Assembly (NCBI GenBank): GCA_013115125.1
Contig: JABANN010000220.1
Span: forward strand, 1-51,747
Direction: 5' to 3'
Source: Perkinsus olseni
Lineage: Eukaryota
Length of the DNA: 51,747 nt
Shown: piece by piece, positions 13,985 through 41,106 of the stretch
Layout of the letters: each line of letters opens with the position of its first letter
Position numbering within the stretch: the first letter of the stretch is position 1
The notes under the pieces: model-generated
Told to the model about the DNA's origin: nothing
Database searches by the model: none
The model's input: only the letters and a program-made list of their open reading frames with translations
Made by a program: the position numbers and the translations under genes

Positions 13985-14199
13985 AGTACTGATGGGTGAT
14001 TGCCCTCTGATCTACGACCCCCTCACCGTTCATACTACTATTACCCTGATTAGGGCATCACTGGTATCAGCAAGGGTTGGGAAGCTCAAGTCTTTTGACG
14101 CACGATCGATTTATAACACCTCCAACTGAATGAACTCAACAGAAGGACCAGTAGAGGGAGACGATGAGGGAGTGCGGCTTCCCGCCCTTTTCACAATGC

Positions 14200-14796
14200 T
14201 TAGAGCTCTTCTTCTGACGGCTCCACACCCTTGATACTCAGCAACTCGATATTGAAGACAAGAGTAGCACCACCGGGAATAATACCGCCCGCACCGTACT
14301 TGCCATACCTGTGACCAACTTCCACCTCGCAGTCCTGAGCTGCTATATTATTACCCTTTGCCGCTGGGAATTGTAACACGCCAGAGCTCACCAGGGCACA
14401 TGCCGACAAGGCCCTCATCCCAACCCTTGATCACACGACCTGACAACGGTTATCGTACAGCCCTTCCAGGGGCGGCAGCCAAAGCCCTTACCTGCTCCAA
14501 GAGGGATCTCGAAAGGGCGATTCCTGTCCCTGCTGGAGTCAAATTTTTTGCCGTCTTGCAGTGTCCAGCCGGTGTAGTGGACCGAGATCGAATCACCCTT
14601 CTTGGTAGGGCGAGCACACTGCTTCTCAACCAGCTTATCGATGACTGAACTCCATCACTCACTCGACAGTACCGGGACGCGTCCTACCTAGATCAGCGTC
14701 CTCCGGAAGGTTGGCTGCCGGCTCTGGCGCCACATCCTCGGCACCGATGAGGAAGAGGGAGAGGGAGCACACCAATAGAGCAAAAATGGAACGCAT
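14200..14796 (-). CDS. ER-type FKBP peptidyl-prolyl isomerase (FKBP2/13-like)
   Basis: Signal peptide [19 protein letters not shown], then [48 protein letters not shown] and [15 protein letters not shown]-terminal EEEL* is an ER-retrieval-like signal. Confidence 0.93.
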
Positions 14797-15026
14797 GGTG
14801 GTTCTTAACAAACTCTAAAAGAAAGACGAGAGAAGCGCGCTGGCAACCAGACAGGATCCTTGTGGCAGCTGGCAAGGGAGGGCAAGATGAGAATGCTCTC
14901 CTCTAGCGGTGACACACTTTGGAGCAACCGTATGGGGAGCGATGCTGAACCCCTCGTCAACACGACATCGACCTCAGATAGAAACACAGAAAAGAGCGAA
15001 CACCAGTAGCGTTATCACTAAAATAA

Positions 15027-16604
15027 TCACTCAACTAGAAGAACTTTCATAACATTGATAGCTCCGGGTGTTTCCTCCTTCATACCGTGTACGGCTACCA
15101 CCTTTTCACCAACTCTAGCGAAGCCCATCTGCTTAGCATGTTCCAGCGCATTATGGATGACCCTGTCGGAACCCTGGAAGGAGGGGACTTGAAGAGCCCT
15201 AACACCGCGGACCACACTCAAAGATCTCATCGTCGACAAAGATGCCGACAAAGCTAGAATGGGTTGTGAGGGGCGGTACTTAGCCAAGAGGCGGGCTGTG
15301 GCGCCCGTTTCTGTAATAGCAATTATTAGACCGCAGTTTGTCTCAGCTGCAAGATCAACGGCGGCTGAGCAGACGGCCTCTGATGTAGAGAGCCCAGAGG
15401 GGCTATGATTGAGGACACGGCTACGAATTCTCAAGAATAAGGAGTCGTAGTCGATGGACTTCTCGGCGCTCTCGCAGATGCGACGTTGAATGTTAACGGC
15501 TTCAACAGGGAACTTACCACCAGCGGTCTCACCGGAAAGCATGACAGCATCGGTACCATCGAGGACGGCGTTGGCGACATCACTGACCTCGGCACGAGTG
15601 GGCCTGGGGTTCTCGATCATGGACTCGAGCATCTGGGTGGCGGTGATGACGGGCTTGCCAGCGAGGTTGCAGCGGGCAGTCATCATCTTCTGGGCGAGGA
15701 AAACCTTCTCAGGAGGCATCTCCATACCGAGATCACCACGAGCGATCATGATGGCATCGGAAGCCTCGAGGATATCATCGAAGTTCCTGAGACCCTCAGT
15801 GCTCTCGATCTTGGAGATGATCTGAACATTACGACCACGACTCCCCAAAATCTTCCGCAGTCCACGGATATCATCACCGTGCTGCACGAAGGAGACAGCG
15901 ATGAAGTTGATGCCGTTAGGAAGACCCCAGTTGAGGATATCGTTGGCCTCCTTCTCACCGATGCAGGGAAGGTCAACTCTGACGCCGGGGAGGTTCATGT
16001 TCTTACGCTCACCGATGATAGCGTGGTTCAAGACACGAGTCTTGACGCTGTCCTCGTAGCACTCAACGACCTGCAGATTAACCGTACCATCAGCCATGAG
16101 GATGATAGAGCCGGGCTTGACACTCTGGGGGAGCTTCTCGTAGGTGCAGGCAATCTTGTGGGCATCACCCTTGAAGGAGTAATCAGTGGTGAGGATCAAG
16201 TCCTGACCGGCCTCGAGCTCGACCTTGCCACCAGCGGCGAAAAAACCCGAACGGATCTCAGGTCCCTTGGTATCGAGTAGAATGGAGACGTCCCTGTTTG
16301 GCCGCTCCCTGAGTGCATCCCTCAGATTCCTCAAAGTCCGACTATGAGTATCAAAGTCACCATGAGAGAAGTTGAACCTCGCCACGTTTAAGCCCTGATC
16401 AATCATCTTAACCAAAGTATCAACATCCCAGCATGATGGGCCCATAGTGCAGACGAGCTTGGTCTTCCTCTGAAAGGAGTCTTGTTCCTCCAGTCCACCA
16501 CCCCAAGTGGCAAGCTCAGCCATATCATCAGGTACAGCTATATGGGCCTCACCAATCACTCCACAGCCATCGATACGTCGACCTGTAAAACCGTGGTCCG
16601 GCAT
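15027..16604 (-). CDS. PYK: Pyruvate kinase, array copy 1 (intronless, 525 aa)
   Basis: Motifs CTMGP, NFSHG, DTKGPEIR, KIE, IARGDLGME, TATQMLESM, PTRAE..DVANAVLDG, MLSGE. Confidence 0.98.
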   Translation of the reverse strand: MPDHGFTGRRIDGCGVIGEAHIAVPDDMAELATWGGGLEEQDSFQRKTKLVCTMGPSCWDVDTLVKMIDQGLNVARFNFSHGDFDTHSRTLRNLRDALRERPNRDVSILLDTKGPEIRSGFFAAGGKVELEAGQDLILTTDYSFKGDAHKIACTYEKLPQSVKPGSIILMADGTVNLQVVECYEDSVKTRVLNHAIIGERKNMNLPGVRVDLPCIGEKEANDILNWGLPNGINFIAVSFVQHGDDIRGLRKILGSRGRNVQIISKIESTEGLRNFDDILEASDAIMIARGDLGMEMPPEKVFLAQKMMTARCNLAGKPVITATQMLESMIENPRPTRAEVSDVANAVLDGTDAVMLSGETAGGKFPVEAVNIQRRICESAEKSIDYDSLFLRIRSRVLNHSPSGLSTSEAVCSAAVDLAAETNCGLIIAITETGATARLLAKYRPSQPILALSASLSTMRSLSVVRGVRALQVPSFQGSDRVIHNALEHAKQMGFARVGEKVVAVHGMKEETPGAINVMKVLLVE

Positions 16605-16992
16605 TATAAGATGATATTAGAAAAACAAATACAAACTGTTCGAGGCCAAATCGAAGTGCCTGAGTGCTCTCTAGACGTCTTTCACCCATTTTCATCTGCC
16701 ACGCGACGCCAGACTAGCATCATCCGTTTTGTGACAGTACTGTCCCCTAATGCTACGCCATGAGTTAGCCTCACAGCTATAGTGTGCAGTGACCGATAGA
16801 CTCCAACTCGACAACAAAACAGACACTTAGCATTCTCTACAAGCATAAGCCTTTGGATAATAACAACAGTTGTGGTATGATAGTAGTTAGGTAGCCCCGT
16901 AGCAGTAGCAGTGACATCATGGGTAATCAAATGATGATAAGTCCGGTGGCTGTGAAAGGTAGTCATCTAACGTGTAATATCGTCTACACTAT

Positions 16993-18564
16993 CTACTCCA
17001 CAGGGAGAACTTTAACCAGGTTAGTGGCACCAGCAGTCTCCTCTTTCATGCCGTGAACAGCAACAACCTTATCGCCTGTCTTCACTAGTCCCACCTCCTT
17101 ACCATAGTTTATAGCGCTTTGAATGATATGGTCGGTCCCTTGGAAGGATGGTACCTTGAGTGAAATGACACCACGGATAGCACAGAGATGCTTAACGGTA
17201 GAATCAGCGGCAGCAAGGGCGAGGACTTGGACACCAGGGCGGTACTTAGCGAGCAGACGAGCAGTACTGCCAGTCTCAGTGAGGGAAATGATCAATGAGG
17301 CTTTCACCTCACCAGCAAGTTCAACAGCTGCGGAGCATACAGATTCCACGACCGAGAGACCCTGGGGGTTGGCATTCATGACAGCTTCACGGATGCGGAG
17401 GAAGAGCGTCTCGTAGTCGATAACGGCTTCAGCCTCCTCACAGATACGACGCTGGATGGAGATGGCGTTAATAGGGAAGCTGCCGCCAGCCGACTCGCCG
17501 GAGAGCATGACACCGTCGGTGCCGTCAAGGACAGCATTGGCGACATCACTGGCCTCAGCACGGGTAGGTCTAGGATTCGTGATCATAGACTCGAGCATCT
17601 GGGTGGCGGTGATGACGGGCTTACCACGGAGGTTACAACGAGCCATCATCATCTTCTGGGCGAGGAAGACCTTCTCGGGAGGGATCTCCATGCCGAGATC
17701 ACCACGAGCAATCATGATGCCATCGGAGGCCTCAAGGATGTCATCGAAGTTCTTCAGCCCTTCTTCGTTCTCGATCTTGGAAATGAGATGGACGTTTCTT
17801 CCACGTTCGCCCATCAGCTTGCGGAGCCCACGGATATCATCACCGTGCTGGACGAAGGAGACAGCGATGAAGTTGATGCCGTTGGGAAGACCCCAGTTGA
17901 GGATATCGTTGGCCTCCTTCTCACCGATACAGGGAAGGTCTACCTTGACACCAGGGAGGTTCATGTTCTTACGCTCGCCGATGGCCGCGTTATTCATGAC
18001 GCGAGTCTTCACCCCATCCTCGTAGCACTCAAGGACCTTCAAACTAACCGTACCATCAGCCATGAGGATGGTAGAGCCGGGCTTAACACTTTGAGGTAGC
18101 TTGGGGTAGCTGCAGGCAATCTTACTAGCGTCACCCTTGAAACCGTAGTCAGTTGTCAGAGTCAGATCTTGACCAGCTTGCAGCTGGACCTTGCCGCCTG
18201 CAGCGAAGAAGCCCGAACGGATCTCGGGTCCCTTGGTGTCAAGCAAAACGGCGACCTCCTTCCCAGGGCGTTGCTTCAGGGCAGTCCTCAGGTTCTTGAG
18301 GGTGTTGGCGTGGGTTTCGAAATCACCATGAGAGAAGTTGAACCTCGCAATGTTCAAGCCCTGATCAATCATCTTAACCAAAGTATCAACATCCCAGCAT
18401 GATGGGCCCATAGTGCAGATGAGCTTTGTCTTCCTCTGCAGGGAGTCGGCAGCACCGCCATCCCAGGCAGATATCTTGGACATATCATCAGATATAGCGA
18501 TGGCAGCCTGACCGAGGACGGCATATCCCTCCACCTTACGCCCACTGAAGGCTTGGTAGGACAT
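16993..18564 (-). CDS. PYK: Pyruvate kinase, array copy 2 (intronless, 523 aa)
   Basis: Full PK motif set in an uninterrupted ORF. Confidence 0.98.
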   Translation of the reverse strand: MSYQAFSGRKVEGYAVLGQAAIAISDDMSKISAWDGGAADSLQRKTKLICTMGPSCWDVDTLVKMIDQGLNIARFNFSHGDFETHANTLKNLRTALKQRPGKEVAVLLDTKGPEIRSGFFAAGGKVQLQAGQDLTLTTDYGFKGDASKIACSYPKLPQSVKPGSTILMADGTVSLKVLECYEDGVKTRVMNNAAIGERKNMNLPGVKVDLPCIGEKEANDILNWGLPNGINFIAVSFVQHGDDIRGLRKLMGERGRNVHLISKIENEEGLKNFDDILEASDGIMIARGDLGMEIPPEKVFLAQKMMMARCNLRGKPVITATQMLESMITNPRPTRAEASDVANAVLDGTDGVMLSGESAGGSFPINAISIQRRICEEAEAVIDYETLFLRIREAVMNANPQGLSVVESVCSAAVELAGEVKASLIISLTETGSTARLLAKYRPGVQVLALAAADSTVKHLCAIRGVISLKVPSFQGTDHIIQSAINYGKEVGLVKTGDKVVAVHGMKEETAGATNLVKVLPVE

Positions 18565-19130
18565 TTACGTGATTTCGAAGGCGATAAGGAGGCTGCACGA
18601 GATGACCTGCGCCCGCGATTCGGTCCTCCGCCTCACAATCACAGTGCCGGTCATCTATTGGAAACTTCAAGAGACCATCACGACTGACCCCACAGCGCAG
18701 ATCGAGCGTAGCACGCCTGTACACAGTCCGCCCATAGCGGGGCTTGCGCAACAAGCAACAGAGTGCCTTCGAGTGGATTGACCTACGATCAACGTTGATA
18801 ACTTCCTTTGGCCTGCATGATTGAACAAAGCGTAGCAGCACTCATTCTACATGGGTATGGTCACGCAGCGAGTTGCATGCATTATGTGGAAGCAAATGGA
18901 TTGAGATTTGCACGCATGCACATTGTGAGTATAAATTCCGGCGGCCCGAACTCCCCCGCGGGGGGAATACGGCTCCGTCGCAGTACTTACTGCATCAGCG
19001 GATCACTATCAGCTTGACCCCAGTGATACTGTTGATACCACTGGGCATACGAATAACGTTTGGTGTGGTACCAGACTGATGATAAAATCCTAACATTTGA
19101 TCGACAAGAAGAAGTTGACGTTGACTCAGA

Positions 19131-19415
19131 CACCTCACAGCGTCGTCGTCGTCCTNNNNNNNNNNNNNNNNNNNNNNNNNNNNNNNNNNNNNNNNNNNNN
19201 NNNNNNNNNNNNNNNNNNNNNNNNNNNNNNNNNNNNNNNNNNNNNNNNNNNNCGTCGTCCTCCGTATCGGCATCACCTCACAGCGTCGTCGTCGTCGTCG
19301 TCGGCCTCCGTATCGGCATCACCTCACAGCGTCGTCGTCGTCGTCGGCCTCCGTATCGGCATCACCTCACAGCGTCGTCGTCGTCGTCGTCGGCCTCCGT
19401 ATCGGCATCACCTCA
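19131..19415. repeat. ~43-46 bp minisatellite CACCTCACAGC(GTC)nGGCCTCCGTATCGGCAT spanning an assembly gap (Ns at 19156-19252)
   Basis: At least three full units right of the gap and a partial unit left of it. The GTC copy number varies between units. Confidence 0.92.
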
Positions 19416-19792
19416 GTGATTCTGCCAACACATTTTCGCGAATTTTCAGCGTTGCTACGATTCTCGAAATTTCAACTCTAAAAATTCGTGAGGGGTGGGC
19501 GGGCCCCTGTCAAGTCGACACTCTGTAGATCACTAACACGAGCATCCACCTTTAATGTGTCCTCCAGCATTCCTCGCACAATAAGATCCTGCAATGGAGC
19601 TGGCCACACCCTTGGCAGACTACGGGAATGCTACTGACAACACAACAAGATGTCACTATAGGCAACACAGCGGAGTAACCGACTGCTGAGCCAATTGGCT
19701 AACTGTTACGCCAAAATGCACCACAATAAGTGGAATGATGAAGTTTTGATTACAGTAGGAGATAACTCACGGTAGACTGCAACGTTTGCTAT

Positions 19793-21361
19793 TTACTCGA
19801 CATTGACAACCTCCATCATGTTGGTGGCACCGGCGGTGTTCTCCTTGATACCATGAACGGCAACAACCTTATCACCAGCCTTCACGAGACCAACAGACTT
19901 GGCGTACTCGAGAGCCTTGGCGACGACAGCCTCGGTATCCTTAAAGGACTCAACCTGGAAGGGGAGGATGCCACGGGCGACGGCAGTGTGGGCGACGGTG
20001 TGCTCGTTATCAGTGACGCACAAGATCTGCTGACGAGGACGGTACTTGCCCAAGAGACGAGAAGTAGAGCCAGTCTGGCTGAGGGCGAGGATGAGGGAGG
20101 CGTTGACCTCGGAGGCGAGAGCAACGGCGTTGGAGCAGATAGACTCGGCAACGGGGAGACCCTCGGGGTGCTTGTTCATGACGGCCTCGCGGATGCGGAG
20201 GTAAAGGGAGTCGTAGTCGATGACAGACTCCGCGCTCTCGCAGATGCGACGCTGGATGGAGATGGCGTTCACGGGGAACTTACCGTTAGCAGCTTCACCA
20301 GAAAGCATGACACCATCGGTACCGTCGAGGACGGCGTCGGCGACATCACTGACCTCGGCACGAGTGGGCCTGGGGTTCTCGATCATGGACTCGAGCATCT
20401 GGGTAGCGGTGATGACGGGCTTGCCTGCGAGGTTGCAGCGGGCAGTCATCATCTTCTGGGCGAGGAAGACCTTCTCAGGGGGCATCTCCATACCGAGATC
20501 ACCACGAGCGATCATGATGGCATCGGAAGCCTCGAGGATATCATCGAAGTTCCTGAGACCCTCAGTGCTCTCGATCTTGGAGATGATCTGGACGTTCTTA
20601 CCGGCCTCACCCATCAACTTGCGGAGACCACGGATATCATCACCGTGCTGGACGAAAGAAGCGGAGATGAAATCGATTCCGTTGGGAAGACCCCAGTTGA
20701 GGATATCGTTAGCCTCCTTCTCACCGATGCAAGGAAGGTCAACTCTGACGCCGGGGAGGTTCATGTTCTTACGCTCACCGATGATAGCGTGGTTCAAGAC
20801 ACGAGTCTTGACGCTGTCCTCGTAGCACTCAACGACCTGCAGATTAACCGTACCATCAGCCATGAGGATGATAGAGCCCGGCTTGACACTCTGGGGGAGC
20901 TTCTCGTAGGTGCAGGCAATCTTGTGGGCATCACCCTTGAAGGAGTAATCAGTGGTGAGGATCAAGTCCTGACCGGCCTCGAGCTCGACCTTGCCACCAG
21001 CGGCGAAGAAACCCGAACGGATCTCAGGTCCCTTGGTATCAAGCATGACGGCGACGTGCTTGCCGGGGCACTGCTTGAGGGCCTCCTTGAGGTTGGCGAG
21101 GCACTTGCTGTGGCTCTCGAAGTCACCGTGGGAGAAGTTGAACCTGGCGATGTTAAGGCCCTGGTTGATCATCTTGACCAAAGTCTCGACATCCCAATCG
21201 GAGGGGCCCATAGTGCAGGTAAGAGTGGTCTTACGGGTGATGGGGTCACAGCTGGAACCATCCCAGGAAGCGAGATCAGCCATCTGGTCAGTGATGGAGA
21301 CGGCGGCCTGGCCGATGACACCGTGGTCCTTCATGGAGCGTCCGCTGAAACCGTGAGACAT
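19793..21361 (-). CDS. PYK: Pyruvate kinase, array copy 3 (intronless, 522 aa)
   Basis: Full PK motif set, nearly identical to copy 4. Reads DVADAV instead of DVANAV. Confidence 0.98.
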   Translation of the reverse strand: MSHGFSGRSMKDHGVIGQAAVSITDQMADLASWDGSSCDPITRKTTLTCTMGPSDWDVETLVKMINQGLNIARFNFSHGDFESHSKCLANLKEALKQCPGKHVAVMLDTKGPEIRSGFFAAGGKVELEAGQDLILTTDYSFKGDAHKIACTYEKLPQSVKPGSIILMADGTVNLQVVECYEDSVKTRVLNHAIIGERKNMNLPGVRVDLPCIGEKEANDILNWGLPNGIDFISASFVQHGDDIRGLRKLMGEAGKNVQIISKIESTEGLRNFDDILEASDAIMIARGDLGMEMPPEKVFLAQKMMTARCNLAGKPVITATQMLESMIENPRPTRAEVSDVADAVLDGTDGVMLSGEAANGKFPVNAISIQRRICESAESVIDYDSLYLRIREAVMNKHPEGLPVAESICSNAVALASEVNASLILALSQTGSTSRLLGKYRPRQQILCVTDNEHTVAHTAVARGILPFQVESFKDTEAVVAKALEYAKSVGLVKAGDKVVAVHGIKENTAGATNMMEVVNVE

Positions 21362-22648
21362 TCTTTATTCGGAAAAATGAACTGCAAGCGAGCCGATTCG
21401 TAGAACCATAACAGCAGAATCTAAGCCGAGCTACGATTATAGTCATGACAAATCGACTGACATCAGTCAGAAAATGATGATCCCAAGAGACACTGGTGGG
21501 TCACTGAATGATTATCGGCGTAGGTGAAGCGCTGAACACTGCGCAGCTACATCGACGAGCACACAAATGATCTGTCCCAAAGCTCTGTCCCTCTCTGATA
21601 GGTCCATGGTGCTCCGAGAGGGGCAAGAAATCCGACAAGGGGCCGGATCGCGACATGACAGCATTCCTTGGAGGCCGGCCTCCAAATACGCCCTCTTTCC
21701 ATGGGGCGTGTTATTAGTCGGGCCAATGCTGTCATCATCTAACTCGATGGGAACTCCGATGTACTTTTGGTGGATATTGCCTCCGATTTAGCGTCAGAGA
21801 ACTGCCCCTGAGCCTGCATACTCACAGCGGCCCTCGACAACGTGTTGCGATGTTATGAGAGACTCTGTAGGCTTCCAGTGACTTGTTAGGGCTGCGATTC
21901 CGATCAGCTATTGCGACCCCGGTTGACCGATACTCGGAATCGAGCCCCAGCCCTCCAATTCGGAATGAAAATACTATCATCAAGATTTACTCCGATAACT
22001 GATGGATTTTCGATTGGTAAATCACTGACACACAGAATTGCATCGACAAGCCAACTATCGTTTCACTATCGAGGGGCTGCCTCAATTAGCTCCACACCAT
22101 CCCACTGGATACGTCCGGCCGAGGACCATTACAGTGGATCCAAACAGGCCCGTCCCCCTGTTAACGCTGAGTCACTACGAACCTGTCCGTAGTCACCCGA
22201 TGAAAACTTCCCCAATCCATCCTCTTCACTATCCGCCACCGAAGATGCGACTGGGGTAAAGGTGAGTAACAGTACTCACCGTGAGTATATACAGTTTGTT
22301 ACGGATACAATGCAACATGAAGAATGCGGCCACTATGCCACGTGGTGCGAAAACGGCGGTCAAATAGAGTTTAACAAGTCCTGAGCCCGCTTCTGAGTGC
22401 TGTTGCCACTTGGTATAGCAGCCTCATTCCTATCATTATGATTAAGACAACTTTCGAGTGTAGCTGATGACTAGCTCAACACGTTGGCATGATGCAAGAA
22501 ACGGAATAACCGATATATTATTTGCCTACAGGCAGCAGCACAGCTCCGACTATTACGTTAGTGGAGCACAACTATTGTGCTCGATTGTCCAAAAAGACAG
22601 TGGTTCAATCGATAAGAAGAAAGAGGAATGGTTTTTGAAGAGAGTAAC

Positions 22649-24217
22649 TTACTCAACATTGACAACCTCCATCATGTTGGTGGCACCGGCGGCGTTCTCC
22701 TTGATACCGTGAACGGCAACAACCTTATCACCAGCCTTCACGAGACCAACAGACTTGGCGTACTCGAGAGCCTTGGCGATGACAGCCTCGGTATCCTTAA
22801 GGGACTCAACCTGGAAGGGGAGGATGCCACGGGCGACGGCAGTGTGGGCGACGGTGTGCTCGTTATCAGTGACGCACAAGATCTGCTGACGAGGACGGTA
22901 CTTGCCCAAGAGACGAGAAGTAGAGCCAGTCTGGCTGAGGGCGAGGATGAGGGAGGCGTTGACCTCGGAGGCGAGAGCAACGGCGTTGGAGCAGATAGAC
23001 TCGGCAACGGGGAGACCCTCGGGGTGCTTGTTCATGACGGCCTCGCGGATGCGGAGGTAAAGGGAGTCGTAGTCGATGACAGACTCCGCGCTCTCGCAGA
23101 TGCGACGCTGGATGGAGATGGCGTTCACGGGGAACTTACCGCTGGCGGCCTCACCAGAAAGCATGACACCATCGGTACCATCGAGGACGGCGTTGGCGAC
23201 ATCACTGACCTCGGCACGAGTGGGCCTGGGGTTCTCGATCATGGACTCGAGCATCTGGGTGGCGGTGATGACGGGCTTGCCAGCGAGGTTGCAGCGAGCA
23301 GTCATCATCTTCTGGGCGAGGAAGACCTTCTCAGGGGGCATCTCCATACCGAGATCACCACGAGCGATCATGATGGCATCGGAAGCCTCGAGGATATCAT
23401 CGAAGTTCCTGAGACCCTCAGTGCTCTCGATCTTGGAGATGATCTGGACGTTCTTACCGGCCTCACCCATCAACTTGCGGAGACCACGGATATCATCACC
23501 GTGCTGGACGAAAGAAGCGGAGATGAAATCGATTCCGTTGGGAAGACCCCAGTTGAGGATATCGTTAGCCTCCTTCTCACCGATGCACGGAAGGTCAACC
23601 CTGACGCCGGGGAGGTTCATGTTCTTACGCTCACCGATGATAGCGTGGTTCAAGACACGAGTCTTGACGCTGTCCTCGTAGCACTCAACGACCTGCAGGT
23701 TAACCGTACCATCAGCCATGAGGATGATAGAGCCGGGCTTGACACTCTGGGGGAGCTTCTCGTAGGTGCAGGCAATCTTGTGGGCATCACCCTTGAAGGA
23801 GTAATCAGTGGTGAGGATCAAGTCCTGACCGGCCTCGAGCTCGACCTTGCCACCAGCGGCGAAGAAACCCGAACGGATCTCAGGTCCCTTGGTATCGAGC
23901 ATGACGGCGACGTGCTTGCCGGGGCACTGCTTGAGAGCCTCCTTGAGGTTGGCGAGGCACTTGCTGTGGCTCTCGAAGTCACCGTGGGAGAAGTTGAACC
24001 TGGCGATGTTAAGGCCCTGGTTGATCATCTTGACCAAAGTCTCGACATCCCAATCGGAGGGGCCCATAGTGCAGGTAAGAGTGGTCTTACGGGTGATGGG
24101 GTCACAGCTGGAACCATCCCAGGCAGCGAGGTCAGCCATCTGGTCAGTGATGGAGACGGCGGCCTGGCCGAGGACACCGTGGTCCTTGATGGAGCGTCCG
24201 CTGAAGCCGTGAGACAT
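22649..24217 (-). CDS. PYK: Pyruvate kinase, array copy 4 (intronless, 522 aa)
   Basis: Full PK motif set with strongly biased codon use. Confidence 0.98.
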   Translation of the reverse strand: MSHGFSGRSIKDHGVLGQAAVSITDQMADLAAWDGSSCDPITRKTTLTCTMGPSDWDVETLVKMINQGLNIARFNFSHGDFESHSKCLANLKEALKQCPGKHVAVMLDTKGPEIRSGFFAAGGKVELEAGQDLILTTDYSFKGDAHKIACTYEKLPQSVKPGSIILMADGTVNLQVVECYEDSVKTRVLNHAIIGERKNMNLPGVRVDLPCIGEKEANDILNWGLPNGIDFISASFVQHGDDIRGLRKLMGEAGKNVQIISKIESTEGLRNFDDILEASDAIMIARGDLGMEMPPEKVFLAQKMMTARCNLAGKPVITATQMLESMIENPRPTRAEVSDVANAVLDGTDGVMLSGEAASGKFPVNAISIQRRICESAESVIDYDSLYLRIREAVMNKHPEGLPVAESICSNAVALASEVNASLILALSQTGSTSRLLGKYRPRQQILCVTDNEHTVAHTAVARGILPFQVESLKDTEAVIAKALEYAKSVGLVKAGDKVVAVHGIKENAAGATNMMEVVNVE

Positions 24218-25209
24218 GATGTTGAGGAATATAATTCACTGTGGCAAAGACATCCTTAATCCTATATCGTACACTACTGCATCAGTATTGTCACACTACC
24301 AAGGACAAGCGTTCGTCGACACTGCACAAGGCGGTCACCTCCAGACGGGGGATTTAGCTAAGCAACGACGATCGCTTGGGGGACACCTCCACACAAAGCT
24401 CGGGAACCTCGGACAGGCGCGCGAGATCCCTGCTAAGACCTGCAGGGAAGGACTGGTCAGCGGTACATCATCGACCACGGCTCGCGATATCCAAGCTTAA
24501 CAAGGCATCGAAGCGGACTCTTGAGAAGTCGATTGCTGTTGGACCCACGCGCCGAAAATTGATGATGACCAATCCCACAGTTAGCATCGTAGATACCGTA
24601 GCGATACAAGCGGCGATGCTTCTTGTGATTAGCGAACGCTGACCTCATGGACCCGCCATGATACTAGAAAAGATAGACCGCTTGTCTGTACCGGTCAACT
24701 CCTCGTACGGTATCTTCAGCACACCCCGTGATTTGCGTATGCGTGCAGATGGAGCACGTTAGGGAGGTACGACCAACACATCCGCCGCCATGCCGTGATA
24801 GAGTATCGTTTGCCGGGTGAATGTGATCACCGACATTAACACTTCGAACTCAAATCAGAGTTCCCTAGGAGGAATGACTTCCAGCATCTCTTGGCATCAC
24901 CAATAGCGAAGTCCATAGCGATAAAGATCAGCAGTAGTTCGAGATACATAGGAATTACAAGGCGTACTACGCACAAACTGCGATTGGTAAGTAGACGGTC
25001 CCATGACCATTACTGAGCGTACTACTTATATATACTCTATTAGGGAAGAGGAAGAAGTAAGAAAAACACGGTTGAAGCAGACCAGTCATGACGGTATGGT
25101 CAGCAAAACTGTTGTTACTAATCTACGGTTATGGGTGTATTCGCCGACGACAATCGTCAAAGATCAGCAGCCAAATGACTCATATTTACAACGGGAGTGA
25201 CTCAGAATT

Positions 25210-26835
25210 TCACTCCACAACGAGAACCTTAATCTGGTTGCTAGCACCAGGGGTAGACTCTTGCATGCCATGGACGGCAACAACTTTATCACCAACTCGG
25301 CACATCCCCATCTGCTTAGCGTGGGCGAGGGCATTATGAAGGATGTGATCAGATCCTTGAAAGGAAGGCACTTGCAGGGCCATGACGCCCCTAGAGAGAG
25401 CTAAGTGCTTCACAGTCGACTCGAACGCTGAGAGGGCCAAAATCTGTTGTGATGGCCTGTACTTAGCCAAAAGGCGAGCAGTGTTACCGGTCTCAGTGAG
25501 AGCGACGATGATGGAGGCATCGCATTCTACAGCTGTCTTTACAGCCGATACGCATACTGCCTCTGAGGTACACAGACCCTCAGGATGAGCATTCATAACA
25601 GCCTGTCGAATGCGAGAGTAAAGGCCATCATAGTCGATTGAATGCTCGGCAACCTCACAAATAGATCGTTGAATGTGGACTGAACTCACGGGGAACTTAC
25701 CACCAGCGGTCTCACCGGAAAGCATGACAGCATCGGTACCATCGAGGACGGCGTTGGCGACATCACTGACCTCGGCACGAGTGGGCCTGGGGTTCTCGAT
25801 CATGGACTCGAGCATCTGGGTGGCGGTGATGACGGGCTTGCCTGCGAGGTTGCAGCGGGCAGTCATCATCTTCTGGGCGAGGAAGACCTTCTCAGGAGGC
25901 ATCTCCATACCGAGATCACCACGAGCGATCATGATGGCATCGGAAGCCTCGAGGATATCATCGAAGTTCCTGAGACCCTCAGTGCTCTCGATCTTGGAGA
26001 TGATCTGAACATTACGACCACGACTCCCCAAAATCTTCCGCAGTCCACGGATATCATCACCGTGCTGCACGAAGGAGACAGCGATGAAGTTGATGCCGTT
26101 GGGGAGACCCCAGTTGAGGATATCGTTGGCCTCCTTCTCACCGATGCAGGGAAGGTCAACTCTGACGCCGGGGAGGTTCATGTTCTTACGCTCACCGATG
26201 ATAGCGTGGTTCAAGACACGAGTCTTGACGCTGTCCTCGTAGCACTCAACGACCTGCAGGTTAACCGTACCATCAGCCATGAGGATGATAGAGCCGGGCT
26301 TGACACTCTGGGGGAGCTTCTCGTAGGTGCAGGCAATCTTGTGGGCATCACCCTTGAAGGAGTAATCTGTGGTGAGGATCAAGTCCTGACCGGCCTCGAG
26401 CTCGACCTTGCCACCAGCGGCGAAGAAACCCGAACGGATCTCAGGTCCCTTGGTATCGAGTAAAATGGAGACGTCCCTGTTTGGCCGCTCCCTGAGTGCA
26501 TCCCTCAGATTCCTCAAAGTCCGACTATGAGTATCGAAGTCACCATGGGAGAAGTTGAACCTCGCCACGTTCATGCCCTGATCAATCATCTTAACCAAAG
26601 TATCAACATCCCAGCATGATGGGCCCATAGTGCAGATGAGCTTGGTCTTCCTCGTTAGAGAGTCTGGAGAGTAGCAGTTCTCATTCCACACGGACAACTC
26701 AGCCAAGTCATCGGCAACAGCAAGATCGGCCTGACCAAGTGCTCGACTCCCTTCAATGTACCGCCCCGTGAAGCCATGATCAGCTACAGGGGTGTCAATA
26801 ACGGCGGAGGCAGCAGCAACAGCAGCACCGGCCAT
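25210..26835 (-). CDS. PYK: Pyruvate kinase, array copy 5 (intronless; likely start MAGAAVAAAS at 26835, ORF open to 26922)
   Basis: Full PK motif set. The core is nearly identical to copy 1. Confidence 0.97.
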   Translation of the reverse strand: MAGAAVAAASAVIDTPVADHGFTGRYIEGSRALGQADLAVADDLAELSVWNENCYSPDSLTRKTKLICTMGPSCWDVDTLVKMIDQGMNVARFNFSHGDFDTHSRTLRNLRDALRERPNRDVSILLDTKGPEIRSGFFAAGGKVELEAGQDLILTTDYSFKGDAHKIACTYEKLPQSVKPGSIILMADGTVNLQVVECYEDSVKTRVLNHAIIGERKNMNLPGVRVDLPCIGEKEANDILNWGLPNGINFIAVSFVQHGDDIRGLRKILGSRGRNVQIISKIESTEGLRNFDDILEASDAIMIARGDLGMEMPPEKVFLAQKMMTARCNLAGKPVITATQMLESMIENPRPTRAEVSDVANAVLDGTDAVMLSGETAGGKFPVSSVHIQRSICEVAEHSIDYDGLYSRIRQAVMNAHPEGLCTSEAVCVSAVKTAVECDASIIVALTETGNTARLLAKYRPSQQILALSAFESTVKHLALSRGVMALQVPSFQGSDHILHNALAHAKQMGMCRVGDKVVAVHGMQESTPGASNQIKVLVVE

Positions 26836-27326
26836 CTTCGAGAGTCCTGATGAATGATTGAAAATGAATCTGAAGCCACTCCCCGCTAAAGTGAAAGAAA
26901 TCTCCCATGACGGCATCATCATGCTGACCCCTAGAAGCTACCATACAGACACCGACTTAAGGAGATGCTATACGCTATCGCAGGGCTCTCCCTCGATACG
27001 ACCAAGTAGTAGACGGGCACCCTTCCCAACGATGACTTCTACGACCAACATAATCACTGAGAGGGATGTTTGGGGAGCCGAGACAGCAGCCGCAGCAACG
27101 CAACAACAACAAGTACTCGGCAGCAGCAGCAGCAGCAGCAGCAGCATTGATAATCAAATTATCAGAGGTTTGTCGTTGTTATGATGATTAAGTTAGACCA
27201 CCGCACAATGGATGATGAGTTAACAGCAAAAACAACAGCAGTGATGACGACGATGAGGCACCGTCACACTACTCGCTGTTCATATTAGAAAAAAGTGCAT
27301 AACCATTATCGCGATGACAGTACTAG

Positions 27327-29108
27327 TTAGTCCACCTCGAGAACCTTCATCAGATTGCTAGAACCACTGACCTCCTCCTTCACGCCGTGCACAGCGACGA
27401 TCTTATCACCCACGGAACACAGCCCCACCTGTTTGGCGTGTTCAAGGGCATTCCTAATGACATGATCAGTACCCTGGAAGGATGGCACCTGTAGGGCTAC
27501 TATCCCCCTGTATAACTGTAAGTGCTTAATAGTAGACTCCGACGCCGACAGGGCAAGGATTGGCGGAGATGGTCGATATTTGGACAGTAACTTGGCCGTA
27601 GCGCCCTGAGAAAAAAAACGAGGAATGATAATCACCACCACGAGCACCACTGGTAGCATTATTACCGTTTCTGTAAGGGCAACGATGAGCGTGGCATTAC
27701 ATTCAATACAAGCCTTCACGGCAGAGGAGCAGACCGCCTCTGGTATCGCCAAACCCTGACACGACAACACTTGCCAATTACCCATGCCACCGTCGCCGCT
27801 TACACCATCGTTCTGATTCATGACAGTCTCTCGTATCCTCTGGAACAGGGTATCATAGTCAATAGAGGACTCGGCCTCCTCACAGATCCTCCTCATAATA
27901 GACACCGCTTGAACCGGGAATGCACCGCCGGCCGACTCGCCGGAGAGCATCACAACATCAGTACCGTCAAGGACAGCATTGGCGACATCACTGGCCTCAG
28001 CACGAGTAGGTCTAGGATTCGTGACCATGGACTCCAGCATCTGGGTGGCGGTGATGACGGGCTTGCCCATCAGGTTGCATCGCCCAGTCATCATCTTCTG
28101 GGCGAGGAAGACCTTCTCGGGAGGAATCTCCATACCGAGATCACCACGAGCGATCATGATGCCATCGGAAGCTGCGAGGATATCATCGAAATGCTTCATG
28201 CCAGACTCATTCTCGATTTTAGAGATGATCTTGATGTGACGCCCTCTCGGTCCAAGCAGCTTGCGGAGGCCTCTGACCTACCAGAACAAACGATATTAAT
28301 CAGCGGCACCCAAGCACCTGTTGTTATTACATCATCGCCATCTTGGACGAAGGATGCTGCTATGAAGTTAACTCCTTGCGGAATCCCAAAATTAAGGATA
28401 TCATTCTTGTCCTTCTCGCTGATACACGGCAGGTCCACTCTGACCCCAGGGAGGTTCATATTTTTACGTTCCCCAATAGTAGCATTGTTCATAACACGCG
28501 TCCTCACACTGTCTTCAAGGCATTCGATCACTTCCAGACTGACAGTTCCATCGGCCATAAGGATGGTGGACCCAGGTTTGACACTCTGGGGTAGCTTTGC
28601 ATAGCTACAGGCAATCTTGGTAGAGTCACCCTTAAAATCGTAGTCGGTGGTCAGAACAAGCTCCTGGCCAGCTTCTAATTTAACCTTGCCGCCTTCCTCC
28701 TTGAAAAAACCAGTTCTAATTTCCGGGCCCTTAGTGTCGAGGAGTATCGCCACATGCTTCCCGGGACGCTGCTTCAACGCTTCTCTTATGCGCTGAACGG
28801 TGGCTCCATGAGCTTCGAAATCCCCGTGGGAAAAATTGAGTCTGACAGGAAAAAATCTATCCACTAACACCTACAGTTTACCATTACCTCGCCACGTTCA
28901 TGCCCTGATCAATCATCTTGACCAAAGTATCAACATCCCAGCATGATGGGCCCATAGTGCAGATGATCTTGGTCTTCCTCGAGAAGGTATCAGTAGCATT
29001 AGAACTCCACTTCGATAACGCTGCCATGTCGTCAGACAGTACTATAGACGCCTGGCCGTAGACGCAGTGGTCTTTGATGAACCGTCCGGTGTATCCGTGG
29101 GTCGACAT
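27327..29108 (-). CDS. PYK: Pyruvate kinase, array copy 6, with four short introns
   Basis: Exons MSTHGY..MNVAR / LNFSHG..QDGDD / VRGLRK..NQNDG / GLAIPE..LTET / GATAKL..KVLEVD*. GT-AG introns lie near 28843-28886, 28278-28328, 27756-27803 and 27606-27665; the last two are in-frame and stop-free. Confidence 0.95.
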
Positions 29109-29959
29109 ACTGCGCCAAAGGAGGAGGTGGTGGACAACCACAAAAACCTAAACGGCAGCCTACTTCTAGCCCGAGACTGTCTCAACAACGTGATCACTGC
29201 GCAGAACACTAGCGCGCGCCCCGGTGATCGATTATCCTCGAGCCCAACATGACACTACAAAGAAACAAGTGTTGCGTCAATCGTCAAAGGTCCAGACATT
29301 ATCGCAGTTGCCGCACCTGAAAAGTTCAGGATTCGTCGGCGATTGGCTATCTCAGGTGACCGGTTTCTGAATGTCTCGATCGGTGTAATATTGGCTACTT
29401 CGTATCGACCTCTTTTGCCATTCCCGAACAATAGAAGCACACAAGCATTTACATGCATGTATGTTGACTATCATATGATCGCTTCCCTTCTTCAATGAGA
29501 ATATGAGTCGACATCGTACGCAGTCCCACGGGAGTAATTAGACAGGTAGCCAGCGGGTGCGGTTGCCCCATGACAAGTGGCTTCTCCCTCAGTCGTCGAC
29601 CATTCCTCGTTATGGCCAATTATCAGTTCGCGTTTGAAGAGCCTCGATGGTGTCTTTTGCCAGAATAAGTACCGATTGGACGAACGGCTAATTCGCCCAA
29701 TCCTCTTTTTGGGGCATCAGTGAAACAGAAATAGGTCAGGAAATGGCATCGTTTTTTTTGTTTTTTACTTGTCGCCGGAATCGACAGCGCAGCCACGGGT
29801 ACACCCAAATTCCGGTCCAGAACGGCAGTAGCGAGAATCGATGTGGACAGAACTGATGCTGAACTTGAGTGGATTTCAAGACGACAAGTGACGAGGTTAG
29901 AATTAGAACAGTCGTGATCATAGAAGCGGTACAACAACGTCCGATATTAGCGGTGGTGG

Positions 29960-31210
29960 GCAGTAGACTACTTAGCCTCCTTCCTCGGGCCAGTTGCATG
30001 CATCTCAGTTGATGCACCCCAGACCTCGTTCTTACGGCAGTCTGATTGGCCATACCCCTGCATAACAACATCATCACCATAGGACCACTACTAGTACTAC
30101 CTCCAGAAACCTGAATCGAATTCGACCAGTCGCCCCACAGCTTGGACACACATCATGCTCTCCTCCGATGTGATTGTAGCGTGCGTCCAATGCAGCCCGC
30201 AGCTGAGGAACAAAGATCGAACTCCCCCTACGCGATCAGCAACCAACCTGTTTGGCCTCTTTGATGGTCTCCTCGTGTTCTCGCTCTCTCTTGCGAGTGT
30301 CCACCGAGCTTCCAACTTCTTGTAAAAATTCACGCGTTCTGGCATCACTACGGTCACCGGCCACATTTATGATCTGCGCAAAATACCGGTGTTATCGGAT
30401 CACGTACACCACCCTTCCAACCTTTTCTCGCGTGATCGGGTAGACGCTCTCCGGGTTCTCTGCCAAATGCTTCAAGGGGTCCACTATCTTCTTCAGATTC
30501 ATCCGATAATCACCGGTATCAGCACCATACTCGTCGTAGAGGTACTGCTCAGCGGCGTCAGACAGCCACAGTAAATCCGGTACACCGATGACCAGCCTCG
30601 CGGCAGCAGGAGTGGTACGAAGACTTTTCTGAACTAAAAACAGTAAAACCATCATTCAACGATACCCCTTCATCCGTACATCGTTCGTCGTATTGGACGG
30701 CACCGGGCCGAGCTTCCACGCGCTGATAAGCTTGGTCGCCGATGTCTTTATGCACTCCCGGATGTTATTATGATACCACTCCTTTGATAACTCTCGCTGT
30801 ACTGCCTCACAACTGAGGGCACTTCGACTGGACGGTGGCACAAGCAGTAGCATTGCCATATAAATAGAAGCCAGCTTAGGAGACTCCGGACCATCCTTCT
30901 CACGTGCTGCTGCTAGTCTAGCCAGTACAGCGGCGACCGTGAAGTCCCATCGTGGATCGACACACTGAGAACGGCCATCACCATTCGATACCCGTCAATG
31001 ATGGCCTACTGCATCGACCAGGGCTCCCGTGACCATATGCTTGGCGGAAAACCGAAGTTGGCCGTTCGCCTGAACCGCCTTCTTTCCTTTGTGAACAGCC
31101 GACATGATATAGAACTGCGGAGGGAGGTCCCGGGTTCGATCCTCACGGAAAACCATTTGCGCTCCTTTCACCCTCAAAAATACTGCAACCAAAAGACATA
31201 CTGAATTCAA
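29960..31210 (-). CDS. Hypothetical protein (probable multi-exon gene, family unrecognised)
   Basis: Successive minus-strand ORFs with protein-like composition (30097-30366, 30392-30655, 30656-30859, 30995-31210). No motif recognised. Confidence 0.35.
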
Positions 31211-39438: not shown

Positions 39439-41106
39439 ATGCTCCATAATATGTTCCTTCTACTCGTCCCCTTCATAGGGACAATGTATGGCGTTGATGC
39501 CCTCCAGGCGACCAACGCTCGTTTCACGGCTACCACCACCAAGTATTGTAACAAGGACCTCCTGGATTCCAATGGCAACCCCGCACCCTGCGGGATATCC
39601 ATGGCTAGAGAAACCTACGGCCTGACTCTACCCGGTATGGAAGACGGTAGCCTCACCACGAGACAAGATGTGATTGCCACTAAGGAGGGTCAAGTGACTA
39701 TTGAGGCTTCCCCAAGCCGCCCCTATCAGTACATGATGTATGTTGAGACCCCTGAACTCCGAAAGGTCGATCAGATATTCATGAACACGGCCCGTACTGT
39801 CCTCGAGGAGACTCATGGTACCGAGCGAATGCTCGCTGTGGCAACTCAGAACTCCCAAAGCCTCGAAGAGGACGGCTGGATCAATGAAGGCGCCGAGTCA
39901 GTCGACGGCGGATCTTACACTAAGTGGGTTCTTCACGGTCCCGAAGGGGTAAATCCCAAAGACGGTACCAATTACACCGCTCTCTATGAGACTGGTCTCC
40001 AGCCCGATACCTGGGTGCTCTATACTGACGAGTCTGCTAACAAGCCTCATAAGCTCCTTGCCATCAACACACACAAGAACGGCAAGGTCTTCCAAGAGAC
40101 TACTATTGATAGCTGGGAATCTCTCGGTGATGAGGTCGGTGTTCAGCACGCCACCAATGAGATGTTTTCGACTTACAATGTCGATTCCTCTCGTTTGCTC
40201 TCGACTGGCGATATGAAGGTGCCCTTCGTCGACTCTGCTTATCTCACCGTTGACTACATCCCCGAAAGCGCTCGCGCTTTCTTCGAGGACGGAGAAGACT
40301 ACGACTGGATGCCCGAGCATCGCAGTCTCAGACAGGGTGCCGGCTTTAAGGGTATTCAGTACTTCACCATCGAGAAGGGGTCCGCTGCCGATTCGTTCTT
40401 CCGCGCCAACACAATGAGGGAGCTCATCCAGATCGCTAAGTTCGAGTTCCCCAAGAGCTGCAAGGATAAGGACGGCAAGCAGATCCCTGGGAAGTATTGC
40501 CTTTACGTCCAACTGGATGTAACGACGGATCCATCGGTCTCACTCGAGGCTGGCATGACCTTCGTGGATGTGAACAACCCGGACATAACAGCTCATTTGA
40601 AGTTGGCCGTCAGCCTCAAGGATACCGACGGTTCTGCCGTCCTTGACCTGTCCTTCGAAGCCGGTGGATGTGCTGTTGTCTTCCAAGTCGGCGAAGGCTT
40701 CAGCCTCTCTATCAACGTGTGCATCACGGGTAAGGCTTCAGGCGAAAACCTGTTGCAGCCCGACAAGCGCACGTTCTCCGGTTCGGTCGAGCTCACAGTG
40801 AGCTTCAACGTTAATGTGCCAGTCGCTGGTAGCATCATCCACTGGGCCATAACTGCTAAACTGGGCGTCACTGCCAAGCCTCAGAATGACATCTCGGCCT
40901 ACGGTAGCCTGGGAACCGATGTTTCGCTATGGATTGCTGGCGCTGCTGTATCGATCGACATCAAGGGTAACACCGTAAGCCATATGGCAAACAGGTGGGA
41001 GTTCGTCTCCGGAGTCAACTTCAACGCCTGGGTCAAGGTCTTGTTCTGGGGTACATCTTGGAGCCATCGTTGGGAGATCTGGCACGCTGGCCCCGTTACA
41101 TTCTAA
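39439..41106 (+). CDS. Intronless 555 aa predicted secreted protein of unknown family
   Basis: Long ORF with strong C-ending codon bias and a hydrophobic N-terminal signal (MFLLLVPFIGTMYGVDA). The C-terminal third is rich in beta-strand-like sequence. Confidence 0.92.
   Translation: MLHNMFLLLVPFIGTMYGVDALQATNARFTATTTKYCNKDLLDSNGNPAPCGISMARETYGLTLPGMEDGSLTTRQDVIATKEGQVTIEASPSRPYQYMMYVETPELRKVDQIFMNTARTVLEETHGTERMLAVATQNSQSLEEDGWINEGAESVDGGSYTKWVLHGPEGVNPKDGTNYTALYETGLQPDTWVLYTDESANKPHKLLAINTHKNGKVFQETTIDSWESLGDEVGVQHATNEMFSTYNVDSSRLLSTGDMKVPFVDSAYLTVDYIPESARAFFEDGEDYDWMPEHRSLRQGAGFKGIQYFTIEKGSAADSFFRANTMRELIQIAKFEFPKSCKDKDGKQIPGKYCLYVQLDVTTDPSVSLEAGMTFVDVNNPDITAHLKLAVSLKDTDGSAVLDLSFEAGGCAVVFQVGEGFSLSINVCITGKASGENLLQPDKRTFSGSVELTVSFNVNVPVAGSIIHWAITAKLGVTAKPQNDISAYGSLGTDVSLWIAGAAVSIDIKGNTVSHMANRWEFVSGVNFNAWVKVLFWGTSWSHRWEIWHAGPVTF

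Follow-up and report, generated by a model that had tools for sequence, protein, structure and literature searches.

Polarella, as the title of one paper reportedly puts it, has 'tandemly repeated single-exon genes', and interlocus gene conversion is a known driver of concerted evolution in tandem paralogues. For reverse transcriptase (RT)-mediated intron loss, recombination between cDNA and gene has been termed 'the most popular model' (PMC2614967). In alveolates, whose ancestor is estimated to have had 3.7–6.3 introns per kb, introns have since undergone net loss (PMC3174169). Here we describe a tandem array of six pyruvate kinase (PK) genes in Perkinsus olseni, a mollusc parasite of economic importance whose genus is the sister lineage of the dinoflagellates. 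The array lies within a stretch of 51,747 nucleotides (the window; positions 1–51,747 of contig JABANN010000220.1, assembly GCA_013115125.1). It consists of one intron-bearing gene, termed c6, and five intronless paralogues, termed c1 to c5, which stand side by side and still exchange sequence. On balance we favour a history in which all four introns disappeared in one ancient cDNA-mediated loss that was followed by tandem duplication and concerted evolution.

The array resembles the tandem single-exon arrays of dinoflagellates in that its intronless copies are co-oriented, that an intron-bearing relative is close by and that the host is a myzozoan with spliced leader (SL) trans-splicing (PMC6050394, PMC12014239). 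It differs from them in that the copies are old, with divergent ends and unrelated spacers, rather than near-identical units, and in that the SL relic which defines the SL-tagged retrogenes of dinoflagellates is absent. As in RT-mediated intron loss, every intron is cut out exactly, the reading frame is kept and neighbouring introns are lost together. Unlike in typical cases, the loss would have struck one member of a tandem family and then passed to four further lineages, while the intron-bearing sister persists alongside and still swaps exon sequence with the intronless copies. We regard the locus as a tidy, unexceptional example of known processes, namely tandem duplication, RNA-mediated intron loss and interlocus gene conversion, with two details that merit attention: the restriction of conversion to the catalytic core, and a tract that ends at an intron. 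Few loci combine, within one family, tests of cDNA-mediated intron loss, of its spread by duplication or by conversion, and of introns as conversion barriers. The array also bears on how far back mRNA recycling and tandem arrays of single-exon genes date. No description of it was found in full-text searches of the literature on Perkinsus with pyruvate kinase (by title and abstract) or with intron loss.

Six co-oriented pyruvate kinase genes, one of them with introns

Six complete, co-oriented PK genes occupy positions 15027–29108 on the minus strand, from the stop codon of c1 at 15027 to the ATG of c6 at 29108. This agrees with the initial annotation of the window and is borne out by open reading frames (ORFs), alignment and domain searches. 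Five of the genes are uninterrupted single ORFs of 522–541 aa: c1 (15027–16604, 525 aa), c2 (16993–18564, 523 aa), c3 (19793–21361, 522 aa), c4 (22649–24217, 522 aa) and c5 (25210–26835, 541 aa). The 541-aa form of c5 starts with the ATG at 26835 and is an exact match to a public protein; upstream of this codon the frame stays open as far as another ATG at 26922. The sixth gene, c6, encodes 524 aa in five exons (29108–28888, 28841–28331, 28277–27804, 27755–27666 and 27605–27327), which were delimited by alignment to c1–c5 and by spliced RNA contigs. The nearest proteins of c1, c5 and c6 are P. olseni models at 99% identity (P0002 for c1, P0153 and P0007 for c6), and a protein listed under P. 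marinus shares 98% identity with c3/c4. The protein names and the 99% matches assign the window to P. olseni. The GC content at third codon positions is 0.74–0.75 in c3/c4 versus 0.60–0.62, and codon bias is the strongest of the six in c4 (0.75). Self-BLAST of 14000–30500 upholds the earlier statement that the spacers are mutually unrelated, the sole match outside the coding sequence (CDS) being a 74-nt tandem repeat at 19253–19415. No PK fragments beyond the six genes were detected in the window by tblastn.

To this layout we add a comparison of region 14500–29600 with the contigs of one DNA run (X2) and of three RNA-type runs from three studies (X7, X8 and X19). All four introns of c6 are of the GTAA..AG type, and their excision yields a 524-aa PK that is colinear with c1–c5. 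Intron 1 (28842–28887, 46 nt, GTAATG..CAG) lies in phase 2 inside codon 74, and its joint, 28841 to 28888, is found in all three RNA runs. The other three introns are in phase 0, and their joints are likewise present in the three RNA runs: intron 2 (28278–28330, 53 nt) follows codon 244 and is joined from 28275 to 28329 (cut +2), intron 3 (27756–27803, 48 nt) follows codon 402 and is joined from 27754 to 27803 (cut +1), and intron 4 (27606–27665, 60 nt) follows codon 432 and is joined from 27604 to 27665 (cut +1). One contig each of X7, X8 and X19 skips all four introns, with CT..AC ends on the plus strand, and none of the introns is skipped in the DNA run X2. Thus, c6 is cis-spliced at four sites, and c1–c5 precisely lack all four introns, just as the initial annotation had proposed.

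The array predates the divergence of P. olseni and P. marinus

P. marinus has an orthologue for each of the c1, c2, c3/4, c5 and c6 lineages with the gene order kept, and P. chesapeaki has one for three of them. On one P. marinus contig, five consecutive PK proteins pair by their N- and C-terminal parts with c1, c2, c3/4, c5 and c6, the terminal identities to the genes of the window being 91–95% (80% for c5). On a second contig of P. marinus there are two c3/4-type genes, one of the c2 type and one of the c5 type, and in P. chesapeaki a c5-type gene adjoins a c6-type gene. Moreover, an independent 451-kb contig of P. olseni contains c6, c5, fused c4+c3, c2 and c1 types. The presence of an orthologous array in P. 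marinus means that the PK family is older than the divergence of the two species. The recurrence of the same gene set and order on another P. olseni contig and on P. marinus contigs also answers the worry, raised with the initial annotation, that the number of copies might be overstated. What that annotation had missed is that the array is ancient, syntenic in P. marinus and shaped by strong gene conversion.

Five public P. olseni models (P0123, P0138, P0142, P0145 and P0151; 1029–1546 aa) merge two to three adjacent PK copies, so that several assemblies are mis-annotated; such fused models have a practical consequence for annotation. Two UniRef PK entries labelled Oxyrrhis marina (P0133 and P0134) are 97–99% identical to a P. 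chesapeaki c2-type protein and look like transcriptome cross-contamination.

Tandem PK genes also occur elsewhere. A metagenome scan kept 80 of 587 confirmed loci, mostly transcript-length contigs and bacterial PKs. Eight of the metagenome loci (L001–L004, L011–L013 and L024) were searched by tblastn, and more than one PK segment was found on L024 and L003 only. The first is a eukaryotic tandem PK contig of 3135 nt (GC 64%, 47–59% identity to c6) with one frame break near residue 441; the second carries two PKs on 2142 nt. The two or three head-to-tail PK genes on each of these eukaryotic contigs indicate that tandem PK genes are not limited to Perkinsus. Both were rejected as outgroups for the intron positions; the frame break of L024 does not coincide with an intron site of c6.

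Gene conversion homogenizes the catalytic core

Judged from the mosaic pattern of the sequences, interlocus gene conversion exchanges sequence among the copies. Sliding nucleotide identity is 50–65% at both gene ends and rises to 97–100% among c1, c3, c4 and c5 over most of the barrel. The converted core of c1 (15441–16466, minus strand) has its matching blocks at 20207–21232 in c3, 23063–24088 in c4 and 25574–26649 in c5, and the corresponding BLAST blocks, which are 87–89% identical overall, hold stretches of 97–100%. At conserved residues c1 and c5 use the same codon in 276 of 286 cases in the core, compared to 28 of 88 in the C-terminal part. For 12 of the 15 pairs, no column shuffle out of 1000 yielded an identical run as long as the longest one observed, the exceptions being c2–c3, c2–c4 and c3–c4. 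Paralogues group by species in the converted parts and by orthology in the unconverted ones: at the protein level, the cores of c1 and c5 are 99% identical within P. olseni, 98% within P. marinus and 96–97% between the species, which is a small margin. The codon style of the shared core is that of c3/c4. Between these two copies, 98.4% identity extends over exactly 1569 nt, beginning at the ATG and ending at the stop codon, and the sequences on either side are unrelated. Flanks would have been carried along in a recent segmental duplication, so that repeated conversion of old duplicates fits better.

Conversion therefore holds the barrel near-identical in c1, c3, c4 and c5, whereas the N-terminal ~100 residues and the C-terminal domain stay copy-specific. 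As in other cases of concerted evolution among tandem paralogues, the mosaic tracts are identical even at synonymous sites. Unlike in the usual case, conversion is limited here to the catalytic barrel, and the intron sites of c6 mark tract ends. Short reads from such near-identical cores will give misleading estimates of expression.

The intron-bearing copy takes part in this exchange only inside its exons. In exon 1, the final ~93 nt (28888–28980, minus strand) match c5 at 98% and both c1 and c2 at ~94%, and a BLAST block aligns 16376–16470 with 28886–28980 at 94.7%. This tract stops at the last base before intron 1, and directly 3' of the intron site identity is at background. In exon 3 (27904–28231, minus strand) further tracts are common to c1, c3, c4 and c5 and, further 3', to c2, with BLAST blocks of 83%. 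Between c6 and c5, codons are identical in 40 of 45 cases in alignment columns 945–1125 versus 50 of 129 in the preceding 540 columns, and between c6 and c2 in 22 of 27 cases in columns 1125–1215. None of the tracts detected in c6 crosses one of its intron sites.

A single loss is the simplest origin of the intronless state

In a full-length tree of 35 rows, c6 falls outside a clade of intronless copies that has 100% support, a signal that conversion could produce. We therefore rely on a tree from which converted parts were left out. It covers c6 residues 1–42, 75–102 and 374–524 (222 columns, 21 rows), includes the P. marinus and P. chesapeaki orthologues and omits a truncated P. marinus model and one mislabelled sequence. 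Here, the 14 rows of the c1–c5 lineages form one clade (100/98) and the three c6-type rows lie outside it, with the shortest branch. The phylogeny that the initial annotation had suggested as a check thus separates c6 from all intronless lineages, and c6 is the slowest-evolving and most consensus-like of the copies.

Because c1–c5 are monophyletic on unconverted columns, a single loss on their stem is the simplest history, and one loss is more parsimonious than four gains limited to one of six copies. Were a spliced cDNA to recombine with the gene, the introns would be expected to vanish exactly and together, which is the pattern seen here. In the history that we favour, tandem duplication would have generated the PK family ahead of the split between P. 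olseni and P. marinus. The common ancestor of c1–c5 would have lost its four introns in one step, when a spliced cDNA recombined with the genomic duplicate beside c6, and later duplications would have inherited the intronless state. That c6 still has its introns may be due to the heterology at the intron sites, where conversion tracts stop, and possibly also to selection in favour of them. The sole direct sign, and a hint at most, that the c6 introns are old is a gap of 4 residues in the model of the P. marinus c6 orthologue, located exactly where intron 3 lies. The precise joint absence of the introns, the single clade of c1–c5 and the conservative nature of c6 all fit the earlier proposal of an origin via mRNA or cDNA; that proposal is supported in part, as the marks of a landed retrocopy are missing.

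Several points weigh against this history. In a tree of the C-terminal domain (151 columns, with fewer Perkinsus rows) the intronless-only clade has a support of 55 and the five lineages are unresolved. The 100/98 support in the conversion-free tree could partly stem from older conversion among c1–c5, and the shuffle test of run lengths takes no account of sites evolving at different rates. That the four c6 introns are ancestral is a reading based on parsimony and priors. In-place cDNA recombination and retrocopy insertion predict the same sequence once hallmarks decay. Finally, the own flanks of c3 are nearly devoid of RNA contigs (depth ~8, in X7 only), although contigs cannot show absence.

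Alternative histories of the array

The best-surviving alternative, which we nevertheless consider rather unlikely, is that a spliced, SL-capped PK mRNA was reverse-transcribed, inserted beside c6 as in the mRNA recycling of dinoflagellates, gained expression and was amplified in tandem. It would explain why all four introns are missing from all five copies, and it suits a lineage that trans-splices. The mRNA of c2 itself bears an SL: a loose contig end at 18594 carries the 3' end of PmaSL1 in reverse complement and then runs into adapter (SL sequence from PMC3101222), and c2 mRNA is therefore trans-spliced ~28–30 nt upstream of its ATG (junction 18592–18594). Recycling of mRNAs does take place in this lineage: SL exons have been reported inside some P. 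marinus genes (PMC3101222). Retrogenes have been detected in P. marinus, and those of Symbiodinium tend to insert near their parents (PMC6050394), so that the earlier remark that retrocopies next to their parent are unusual goes too far. Against an insertion stands the absence of an SL relic, of an A-rich tail and of similarity beyond the CDS. Pattern searches for an SL relic upstream of any copy, allowing up to 3 mismatches, gave 0 matches, with none within 300 nt upstream. Another SL pattern search gave 2 matches, which is chance level, neither of them upstream of a copy, and in local alignments the best SL scores were 6–8, compared to a background with a 95th percentile of 7 and a maximum of 12. 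Inspection by eye revealed no A-run in the 400 nt after any stop codon. The untranslated regions (UTRs) show no similarity to the parent, and the BLAST matches between copies all end within the CDS. The absence of these marks weakens the retrocopy; since the event predates the split of P. olseni and P. marinus, decay could explain it.

A broader version joins these elements. In the common Perkinsus ancestor, an SL mRNA copied back into the genome next to its parent gene would have founded c1–c5, and the c6 introns would since have acted as conversion barriers that insulate one 'reference' isozyme, while the other cores homogenize and the regulatory ends diverge. We put this forward tentatively, as a scenario that is rather unlikely. 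If true, it would be the oldest traceable case of dinoflagellate-type mRNA recycling building tandem single-exon arrays.

Alternatively, the ancestral Perkinsus PK may have been intronless and the c6 lineage may later have acquired four short introns. Several full-length PKs of related protists are indeed called as single ORFs on long contigs (e.g., P0115 on a 22-kb contig), and the unrelated tandem contig L024 is almost intronless. However, this history requires that one copy gained four introns while its five equally old paralogues gained none, and the gains would have hit the copy that evolves slowest. The introns of c6 also resemble ordinary Perkinsus introns, which are mostly <100 bp (PMC3101222), and the net trend inferred in alveolates is loss (PMC3174169). 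We consider such gains unlikely.

Slightly less probable still is that one copy lost its introns and that tracts from it crossed the intron sites of the others after the duplications. Conversion is active and covers the intron-2 site in c1, c3, c4 and c5. The sites of introns 3 and 4, however, lie in the C-terminal region, which is 50–65% identical and without sign of recent conversion, and none of the six copies has an intermediate intron set. Moreover, the monophyly of c1–c5 on unconverted columns makes inheritance the simpler explanation. That the copies are collapsed or duplicated haplotypes, as the N gap and tandem repeat in the c2/c3 spacer and the divergence of contigs from other runs at 19309/19398 and 26827 might suggest, is highly improbable, since the copies, c3/c4 excepted, differ in 15–34% of their nucleotides, X2 contigs, whose independence is uncertain, bridge three of the five spacers, and the same set and order recur on a further contig of P. 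olseni and on two of P. marinus. The history that thus remains in front is the single cDNA-mediated loss followed by duplication and conversion.

The copies share a catalytic barrel and differ in their C-terminal domains

All six proteins match PF00224 over positions 2–328 of 328 (E 1e-131 to 1e-138) and PF02887 over positions 1–114 of 114, c6 having been tested through the public protein P0153, which is 99.2% identical to it. An alignment of 18 sequences, with c2 and near-identical stand-ins for c1, c3/4, c5 and c6, contains ~150 invariant columns. The catalytic columns are among them, with the individual catalytic residues presumably those of PKs generally. The best solved structural relative is 3eoe/3gg8, which we take to be PK1 of Toxoplasma gondii; it is colinear along its full length and scores 692 bits over residues 39–523. 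Perkinsus PKs form a clade of 12 rows with a support of 99 in the full-length tree and 93 in the C-terminal-domain tree.

The array genes, PKs of the cytosolic type, thus resemble the type-I PKs of apicomplexans, with ~63% identity to coccidian PK1 proteins, the same two Pfam domains and, in c6, a C-terminal motif that equals the myzozoan consensus. They differ from them in forming six tandem paralogues, all born within the Perkinsus lineage, and in the strongly diverged C-terminal domain of c3/c4, which is 52% identical to that of c6. The C-terminal alpha/beta domain of PK carries the allosteric site. To judge from their sequences, the six isozymes probably differ in regulation and not in catalysis, and a shared catalytic core with distinct C-terminal domains suggests that the parasite may have differently regulated glycolytic exits.

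At least five of the six copies are transcribed

RNA contigs enter the unique ends or UTRs of c1, c2, c4, c5 and c6, so that at least five of the six copies, with c3 as the possible exception, are transcribed; contig depth figures were not used to rank expression. For c1, the contigs span 14979/15027–15537 in X7 and X8, and for c5 24547/24866–25720 in the same two runs. Contigs of c2 are present in X7, X8 and X19, and those of c4 (22493–23273 and 23537–24240) extend into its own UTRs in X19, X7 and X8. In the c5/c4 spacer, one X7 contig with a depth of 8.8 has 109 nt spliced out (24438–24546, minus strand, GT..AG), which joins the 3' UTR region of c5 to sequence directly upstream of c4. This could be read-through from c5 to c4 or a 5'-UTR intron of c4.

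The contigs also reveal variation within the array. Upstream of 26827, up to 26922, X2 DNA and X8 and X19 RNA contigs have a different sequence at the start of c5, which is probably an allelic or haplotype form of its N-terminus. The spacers bridged by X2 contigs are c1/c2, c3/c4 and c4/c5; this run may share its source with the window. The c2/c3 spacer contains an assembly gap of 97 N (19156–19252) that is followed by a short tandem repeat up to 19415, and contigs of X2, X8 and X19 depart from the window sequence at 19309/19398. The alternative sequence more likely stems from the tandem repeat at the gap than from a haplotype without c3. An 18-nt motif from the consensus of these loose ends has no other occurrence in the window. 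In the c6/c5 spacer, short-read contigs break at a CTG/CAG trinucleotide repeat (27111–27156).

Genes surrounding the array

Beyond the array, stop-free frames reach at most ~200 aa, a single frame of 555 aa excepted, and neighbouring genes appear as Pfam fragments, Rer1 for instance in at least four pieces. The exception is a complete single ORF on the plus strand (39439–41103) that matches DUF6740 over positions 1–532 of 532 (E 5e-226) and is intronless amid fragmented, intron-rich genes. In a published survey, 32 of 104 Perkinsus genes (~31%) were without introns (PMC3101222). This figure and the DUF6740 gene indicate that intronless genes are not rare in Perkinsus. The earlier statement that nearly every neighbouring gene bears introns is thus in keeping with the Pfam fragments and slightly overstated with regard to the frequency of intronless genes. 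Directly downstream of the array, an FKBP-type gene on the minus strand contains a 43-nt intron (14645–14687) that is spliced in three RNA runs, and it has an SL junction at 14816.

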